From: a virus
Taxonomy: Duplodnaviria; Heunggongvirae; Uroviricota; Caudoviricetes
IMG/VR virus record: IMGVR_UViG_2671180603_000016
Length of the DNA stretch: 8,632 nt
Strand: one strand, 5' to 3'
Shown: one piece after another, positions 7,423 to 7,656 of the stretch
Position numbering within the stretch: position 1 is the first letter of the stretch
How the letters are laid out: each line of letters starts with the position of its first letter
Translations under genes and position numbers: made by a program
Notes under the pieces: model-generated
Told to the model about the DNA's origin: nothing
What the model saw: the letters and a program-made list of their open reading frames with translations, nothing else
Database searches by the model: none

Positions 7423-7656
7423 GTGCTGATTGGCTATGTAAGGGTATCAACAAATGACCAGAATACAGACCTGCAACGAAACGCTCTTGTTTGTGCAGGA
7501 TATGAACAAATATTTGAAGATAAATTAAGCGGAACAAGGACAGGCCGACCTGGATTAAAACGTGCTTTAAAGCGCCTTCAAAAAGGTGACGCACTGGTTG
7601 TCTGAAAACTGGACTGACTGGGTCACTGTATGCGGCATCTTGTCGTGCTGGTGGTG
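7423..7656 (+). pseudogene. pin: DNA invertase (Pin/Gin/Hin serine recombinase) remnant: N-terminal catalytic region only, with premature stops
   Basis: GTG 7423 with GGGAG SD. Encodes (M)LIGYVRVSTNDQNTDLQRNALVCAGYEQIFEDKLSGTRTGRPGLKRALKRLQKGDALVV, then in-frame TGA at 7603 (Trp position in Pin/Gin) and TGA at 7615 (Arg position), then [15 protein letters not shown]. The helix-turn-helix C-terminal half is absent. Confidence 0.8.

Follow-up and report, generated by a model that had tools for sequence, protein, structure and literature searches.

Gin, Cin, Pin and Hin have been known since the 1980s to complement one another. Direct trans action between cryptic prophages has been shown for PinQ of Qin, which inverts the e14 segment (Kirigo et al. 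2025, NAR, PMC12529663). The described system closest to the locus presented here is prophage Phi4 of Escherichia coli EC958, for which a 3,106-bp invertible segment, a truncated invertase (EC958_1582) and a table of the crossover sites were reported (Forde et al. 2014; PLoS One 9:e104400; PMC4134206). PacBio sequencing of one EC958 culture yielded alternative contigs for the fibre regions of Phi1, Phi2 and Phi4, with both orientations of Phi4 represented, and the authors inferred and proposed that the Phi1 invertase acts on Phi4 in trans (PMC4134206). A preprint on ST131 wound isolates describes reversible inversions in P88-like and BP-4795-like prophages; the same preprint lists a DNA invertase for the P88-like and phiE255-like prophages but not for the BP-4795-like prophage. 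A fibre switch beside a truncated invertase is thus already in the literature (E. coli ST131, 2014), and what we describe is a further host and no new mechanism.

The window, by which we mean the whole stretch of 8,632 nucleotides that was analysed, is the entire draft contig CXDK01000175.1 of the Shigella sonnei assembly GCA_001252175.1; the locus forms one end of the remnant of a lambdoid prophage that occupies the ompW/trp site of S. sonnei. It shares with EC958 Phi4 the ompW/trpA site, both 26-bp crossover sites letter for letter, the same remnant of an invertase gene (gin′; 3 substitutions in 278 nt, both stops included), and the same tfa fragment and methyltransferase gene. The two differ in host (ST131 for Phi4, S. 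sonnei for the window), in the length of the segment (~3,106-3,107 bp in Phi4, 2,942 bp in the window) and in their distal fibre-arm alleles, the segments being ~85% identical overall. In EC958, moreover, the neighbouring lom carries ISEc12 and the fibre gene is annotated as incomplete by PGAP, whereas the window's fibre gene is intact.

More distant relatives share the plan of the switch. The order of parts is that of the Mu G segment (Sc, Sv and U, then inverted U′ and S′v, then the invertase gene, with tfa genes of 528 and 534 bp); the window's crossover sites resemble gix and differ at 3 positions from each Mu gix, and over its first 190 nt, GTG start included, the invertase gene has 92.5% identity to Mu gin. 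Mu gin, however, is intact and encodes 193 aa, whereas the window's gene meets a stop at codon 61 and breaks off at codon 78, and the constant fibre part of the window is lambdoid (PF08400) rather than Mu S. The cassettes of P2-like prophages (EC958 Phi1, strain T28R) are 93-97% identical to the window from ~500 bp upstream of the left site to 7613, and their crossover sites are near-identical to the window's; their invertase genes are full length (195-199 aa) and are followed by P2 tail genes, whereas the window's gene is fused to the 3′ end of a lambdoid tfa. The e14 P segment and its pinE belong to the same enzyme family, and window positions 7630-7657 match pinE save for one base, but e14 retains an intact pinE of its own and has a P segment of only 1,797 bp.

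Layout of the segment and the invertase remnant

The features of the locus, in window coordinates, are as follows.

2560-4426, plus strand: constant part of stf (lambdoid side tail fibre), read into the segment; the ORF 2560-5340 encodes 926 aa and matches PF08400 (phage_tail_N)
4427-4452, no strand: left 26-bp crossover site of gix/pix type, TTATCGAATACC-TC-GGTTTACAGGAA, identical to Phi4_5prime (Forde et al. 2014, Table 3)
4453-5340, plus strand: variable fibre C-terminus of arm A, currently expressed, in frame with the constant part
5342-5869, plus strand: arm A tail fibre assembly gene, 175 aa, U-like, PF02413 (Caudo_TAP)
5898-6431, minus strand: arm B tail fibre assembly gene, 177 aa, U′-like, currently silent, PF02413
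6434-7342, minus strand: silent alternative fibre C-terminus of arm B, PF12604 (gp37_C), open after in-silico inversion
7343-7368, no strand: right 26-bp crossover site, TTCTCGTAAACC-GA-GGTTTTAGATAA, identical to Phi4_3prime of Forde et al.
7423-7657, plus strand: gin′ pseudogene, codons 1-60 intact, TGA at 7603 and at 7615; Gin-like to 7613, PinE-like over 7630-7657
7444-7507, no strand: predicted Fis-dependent recombinational enhancer, with two G-N13-C 15-mers centred at 7451 and 7500
7652-7749, plus strand: tfa 3′ fragment fused in frame to gin′; TGG changed to TAG at 7663, where the E66 allele has TGG
7804-8472, minus strand: class I SAM-dependent methyltransferase gene, cargo at the prophage end and outside the switch (Pfam Methyltransf_12 and related families; annotated as such in relatives)

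The two crossover sites read TTATCGAATACCTCGGTTTACAGGAA (4427-4452) and TTCTCGTAAACCGAGGTTTTAGATAA (7343-7368). They are in inverted orientation, their TC/GA cores match, and they are complementary at 22 of 26 positions, a pairing that arose in none of 200 shuffles; an inverted-repeat search paired 4423-4452 with 7343-7372. Their matching cores and letter-for-letter identity to the Phi4 sites agree with the original prediction, made from the window's letters, that both sites are intact. After in-silico inversion of 4439-7356, the native 926-aa fibre and 175-aa tfa product give way to a fibre of 933 aa, open throughout, and behind it the 177-aa tfa product; the native and flipped fibres are identical to residue 629 (nt 4447). 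All four fibre and tfa frames are therefore open, so that both alternatives still code. The exact 933-aa fibre of the flipped form had no match in the protein collection searched; the exact 177-aa tfa protein of arm B is found in thousands of assemblies, and arm A shares 97.5% identity with the arm that is silent in the P2-like prophage of strain T28R.

The left end of the window (1-2560) holds a partial second copy of the lom-stf region, in which an ORF at 1397-2461 (354 aa) joins the stf N-terminus, at 2371/2373, to an 83-bp lom 3′ fragment; the full stf begins at 2560. Positions 1-2371 are 99.9% identical to complete S. sonnei chromosomes, and positions 2372-2560 match another allele (L005) at 100%. 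Between them, the window's two stf 5′ copies are only 87.6% alike, and three other assemblies with the same fibre are without the duplication. Either the tandem duplication is real or the assembly has joined two lambdoid prophages into a chimera.

The gene to the right of the segment is a remnant. In-frame translation of 7423-7700 gives VLIGYVRVSTNDQ..., in which the 60 sense codons from the GTG read VLIGYVRVSTNDQNTDLQRNALVCAGYEQIFEDKLSGTRTGRPGLKRALKRLQKGDALVV; there follow TGA at 7603-7605 (codon 61), three codons, TGA at 7615-7617 (codon 65), 15 codons and TAG at 7663-7665. The Pfam Resolvase profile (PF00239) matched the 80-aa conceptual product, with stops masked, at E=3e-19, over profile positions 2-86 of 145 only, and two in-frame stops fall inside the matching stretch. 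Ser9, the position of the Gin nucleophile (PMC3575834), is kept, within VRVSTNDQ. The arginines of the DRLGR motif are gone, codon 65 (Arg) being TGA and codon 68 (Arg) encoding His, and codon 78 is the last with homology to invertases, so that the E-helix beyond it is absent, as are the C-terminal ~115 invertase codons. No helix-turn-helix DNA-binding domain (PF02796) was found in gin′ or downstream of it, where position 7657 is followed by the tfa 3′ fragment and then the methyltransferase gene; intact relatives of gin′ have this domain. In the loci inspected, PGAP labels the orthologue of gin′ "recombinase family protein, incomplete, missing C-terminus".

gin′ is what is left, at the 5′ end, of a Gin-type DNA invertase gene; it is non-functional and could encode a peptide of at most 60 residues. 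The original prediction had called the resident invertase gene dead, with only its first ~60 codons intact from the GTG and its DNA-binding half missing. Our translation gives exactly 60 sense codons before a TGA; the two in-frame stops, the incomplete catalytic domain and the missing DNA-binding domain confirm that the gene is dead; and the DNA-binding half is missing because homology to invertases ends at ~7657, with the tfa 3′ fragment present from 7652.

Inversion of the segment in orthologous loci

Both orientations of the segment are found in S. sonnei. The native window aligns colinearly with the complete chromosomes CP032523.1, CP064376.1 and CP046286.1; flipped in silico, it does so with CP026802.1 and JANXIY010000004.1, over all 6,073 bp compared. 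When CP032523.1 was itself flipped in silico at the core dinucleotide, it became colinear with CP026802.1 over 20,001 bp (99.885% identity, 5 mismatches). The inner half-sites of these two chromosomes are swapped reciprocally (..ACAGGAA / TTCTCG.. to ..ACGAGAA / TTCCTG..), and both carry an identical gin′ with both stops.

The same relation holds between two E. coli ST131 strains: once EC958 is flipped in silico at the core dinucleotide, JJ1886 aligns to it without a gap at 100.000% over 8,521 bp; against native EC958 the alignment breaks into three pieces. Using symmetric 700+700-bp junction queries on complete E. coli genomes to ask which arm lies next to gin′, we found one orientation in 239 and the opposite one in 142; similarly named isolates fall on opposite sides (4/0 as against 4/1-1 and 4/4; U12A as against U13A-U15A), their relatedness being judged by name only. 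The window's own right junction, with arm B next to gin′, was found in none of the complete E. coli genomes at a coverage of at least 80%, because its source, S. sonnei, lies outside that collection. Four drafts with an identical fibre protein all have the same orientation, a selection effect of their having been retrieved through that protein.

The inverted repeat at the segment ends of the window, EC958 and S. sonnei consists of the 26-30 bp site only, with 4 mismatches and a longest identical run of 12 bp, and the mismatches at site positions 9 and 22 delimit the exchange to the stretch around the core dinucleotide. Exchange inside sites this short is the signature of a serine invertase and not of homologous recombination. 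In orthologous loci with the same dead gene, the segment inverts by exchange at the core of the site.

Could the gene in truth be intact, its stops mere errors of sequencing or assembly? The window is indeed a draft contig from short reads, with a left part that looks chimeric, but we give this explanation practically no credence. gin′ (7423-7700) is identical in three other S. sonnei drafts, and two complete S. sonnei chromosomes give the same translation; the copies in E. coli NCTC86, EC21Z-078 and EC958 depart from it by 1-3 bases, all of them outside the stops and the fusion to tfa, and JJ1886 has the same stops and fusion. A query spanning the junction of gin′ and the methyltransferase gene matched 426 complete E. 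coli genomes at a coverage of at least 80%, PGAP calls the gene incomplete in the loci inspected, and the ~115 C-terminal codons are simply absent. The lesions are not sequencing errors, since they are identical in independent draft and complete assemblies; the possibility of such errors, raised with the original prediction, is ruled out by the same lesions in NCTC86, EC958 and the complete S. sonnei chromosomes. It is also highly improbable that the segment inverts by RecA-dependent homologous recombination between inverted repeats, with no site-specific invertase. The arms of NCTC86 form a 1.3-kb inverted repeat of 85% identity that could support exchange in that allele, but the window, EC958 and S. 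sonnei offer only the short end repeat with its 12-bp run of identity, and the perfectly reciprocal swap of half-sites between positions 9 and 22 argues against it.

The remaining alternative is that the switch is a frozen orphan, the window's isolate having no compatible invertase, with arm A locked on and arm B decaying. The isolate's short-read contig crosses the whole segment in one orientation, and many complete S. sonnei chromosomes have a fibre gene cut by an insertion sequence (IS) while some have a premature stop in arm B, which points to relaxed selection. We nevertheless regard a frozen switch as quite unlikely, given that complete S. sonnei chromosomes sharing this dead gene include both orientations and that Gin-type invertase ORFs of a P2-like prophage are present in S. 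sonnei assemblies of the same sequencing projects. The original prediction had left the choice between a segment frozen in its current orientation and one flipped in trans. The data support that framing and favour flipping in trans, for three reasons: both orientations accompany one and the same dead gene, the strands are exchanged within the 26-bp sites, and ST131 and S. sonnei possess intact invertases of the Gin type, encoded by P2-like prophages.

A comparison of the window with NCTC86, in which arm B lies on the opposite side, was dropped as proof of a flip; the allele of the other arm has been replaced there, which confounds the comparison. The NCTC86 arms (9676-10967 and 11362-12673) form an inverted repeat and both of their inner half-sites are of the same type, whereas the arms of the window are unrelated beyond the 26-bp site. 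The S. sonnei locus is itself decaying: several complete chromosomes have an IS just inside arm A, and in others the stop in arm B splits off a 48-aa ORF.

Probable source of the enzyme and the predicted enhancer

We think it very likely that gin′ is a dead stump and that the switch is flipped in trans by the invertase of another prophage, with Fis acting on the retained enhancer. The parts needed in cis appear to survive, namely the two inverted 26-bp sites, the predicted enhancer in the first ~100 nt of gin′ and two open fibre/chaperone pairs, and with these intact the 2.9-kb segment should still be a substrate. A Gin/Pin-family invertase made elsewhere in the cell would then invert it, most probably the nearly identical invertase of a co-resident P2-like prophage, and host Fis would act on the predicted enhancer. 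We infer the identity of the acting enzyme, the use of the enhancer and the presence of such an enzyme in the window's own isolate.

Candidate enzymes are encoded by P2-like prophages. Phi1 of EC958 has an intact 199-aa Gin-type invertase, and ST131 genomes in the one orientation and in the other contain the 3′ half of its gene, the portion missing from gin′, at 100% identity. A P2-like prophage of S. sonnei carries a fibre cassette that is nearly the same as the window's; the S. sonnei invertases that NCBI calls partial are open from codon 9, at a contig edge, to their natural stop, with full catalytic and helix-turn-helix regions, and the corresponding full-length invertase of 195 aa is present in 991 contigs. 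Within 10 kb on either side of the locus, the complete S. sonnei chromosomes have no other resolvase-domain (PF00239) gene, which bears on the further proviso of the original prediction that an intact invertase might be encoded just outside the window as part of the same element.

Two S. sonnei drafts, L014 (12380-13470) and L015 (11029-12660), were considered as evidence of rearrangement and set aside as probable assembly chimeras. In both, a P2-like fibre cassette, with arm B expressed and arm A silent, is joined to the lambdoid flank of gin′, and the SNPs change from P2-type to gin′-type inside a 107-nt stretch common to both genes; L014 is a scaffold with N gaps, after which intact-type gin sequence follows. 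Assembly is probably the source of these joins, though they may instead reflect recombination between the two prophages.

The enhancer is predicted from the spacing of its putative Fis sites. The two 15-mers in gin′ lie 49 bp apart and bound 64 bp, with the proximal centre ~95 bp from the centre of the right crossover site, and these G-N13-C 15-mers are conserved in gin, the Phi1 invertase gene and pinE. The first 107 nt of gin′ equal those of Mu gin and of the intact EC958 Phi1 gene save for one base, G to A at 7502. The Hin enhancer is described as 65 bp long, with a Fis site at each end, ~100 bp from the hix site (PMC3798978), and the Mu enhancer as lying inside the invertase gene (Kahmann et al. 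1985, as cited in PMC3798978). The geometry of 7444-7507 fits both this description of the Hin enhancer and the location of the Mu enhancer, and Fis would be expected to bind there; the assignment therefore rests on homology and on the geometric description in PMC3798978. No signal of extra conservation of the enhancer part was seen among gin′ alleles, whose differences (7470, 7502, 7512, 7603, 7611, 7622, 7664 and 7683) are scattered.

A truncated invertase beside a fibre cassette should not be taken for a frozen switch. Orientation can differ between close genomes and probably within cultures, with consequences for annotation, assembly and typing. With a cryptic lambdoid remnant dependent on the enzyme of another element, the locus would be a natural instance of cross-talk between prophages, and the orientation counts and the S. 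sonnei cases carry the single-strain observation of 2014 to population scale.

Ancestry of the remnant and possible origin of the cassette

We aligned gin′ with Mu gin, e14 pinE and the intact invertase genes of EC958 prophage Phi1 and strain T28R. At the DNA level, the gin genes of D108, SfMu and several P2-like phages are ~95% identical to window 7343-7613, and Mu gin 92.5%. Judged by this homology, which takes in the upstream intergenic region and the start codon, gin′ is a descendant of a gin-type gene; its GTG start is ancestral, being found also in Mu gin and in the intact invertase genes of EC958 Phi1 and T28R. Homology of the gin type (Mu, P2-like) extends to 7613 and homology to invertases in general to ~7657, and the stretch 7630-7657, with its single difference from pinE, resembles pinE and not gin. 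The label "Pin/Gin-type" originally given to the gene can accordingly be refined: it is Gin-like, of the Mu/P2 type, over the first 190 nt, and Pin-like only in a short tail.

The two stops inside the gene have different histories. Codon 61 is TGG in every intact relative and in the E66 allele of the same pseudogene, and TGA in the window. Codon 65 is the first Arg of DRLGR (Arg65 of DRLGRS); it is CGC or CGG in relatives, two changes away from TGA, and it belongs to a patch (7613-7629) with ~8 differences from every intact relative examined. The original prediction had traced both stops to single-base changes at conserved Trp and Arg codons. This holds for Trp61, given the TGG of intact relatives and E66; for Arg65 the position was right, but the codons of relatives do not demonstrate an origin by a single-base change. 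The E66 allele has TGG at codon 61 and at 7663 and has the TGA at codon 65 and the tfa fusion in common with the window, a pattern from which it follows that the truncation and the codon-65 stop are old and that the stop at 7603 is later decay.

In E. coli E66 the same gin′-tfa′ fusion (5969-6295) lies in a lambdoid prophage at another chromosomal site, beside potB/pepT. Two of the three stops are missing from this allele which, save for the TGA at codon 65, would read in frame as Gin(1-78)-Tfa(C-terminal ~28 residues); PGAP calls a 64-aa protein for the fusion gene.

Homology between the window and the P2-like cassettes of T28R and Phi1 begins ~500 bp upstream of the left crossover site and ends at 7613, and the stump is fused in frame, at ~7652-7657, to the tfa 3′ end, where a lambdoid stf-tfa pair would end. 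A plausible origin of the cassette, suggested by these boundaries, is capture by recombination with a P2-like phage, with the right junction inside gin. One might go further and suppose that the first ~100 nt of the stump have been kept by selection as a cis enhancer for a foreign invertase, the prophage having perhaps been "born orphan" through capture of a P2-type cassette with its junction inside gin. We hold this idea tentatively and think it rather unlikely; if true, it would provide a natural example of a switch with an outsourced recombinase.

A second copy of the tfa 3′ fragment, 89% identical to the first, lies beyond the methyltransferase gene in relatives. The two copies form direct repeats of ~148 bp, at window 7652-7798 and just past 8632 (NCTC86 13402-13549), that flank the methyltransferase gene, and the contig probably breaks where it does because of this second repeat just past the end of the window.
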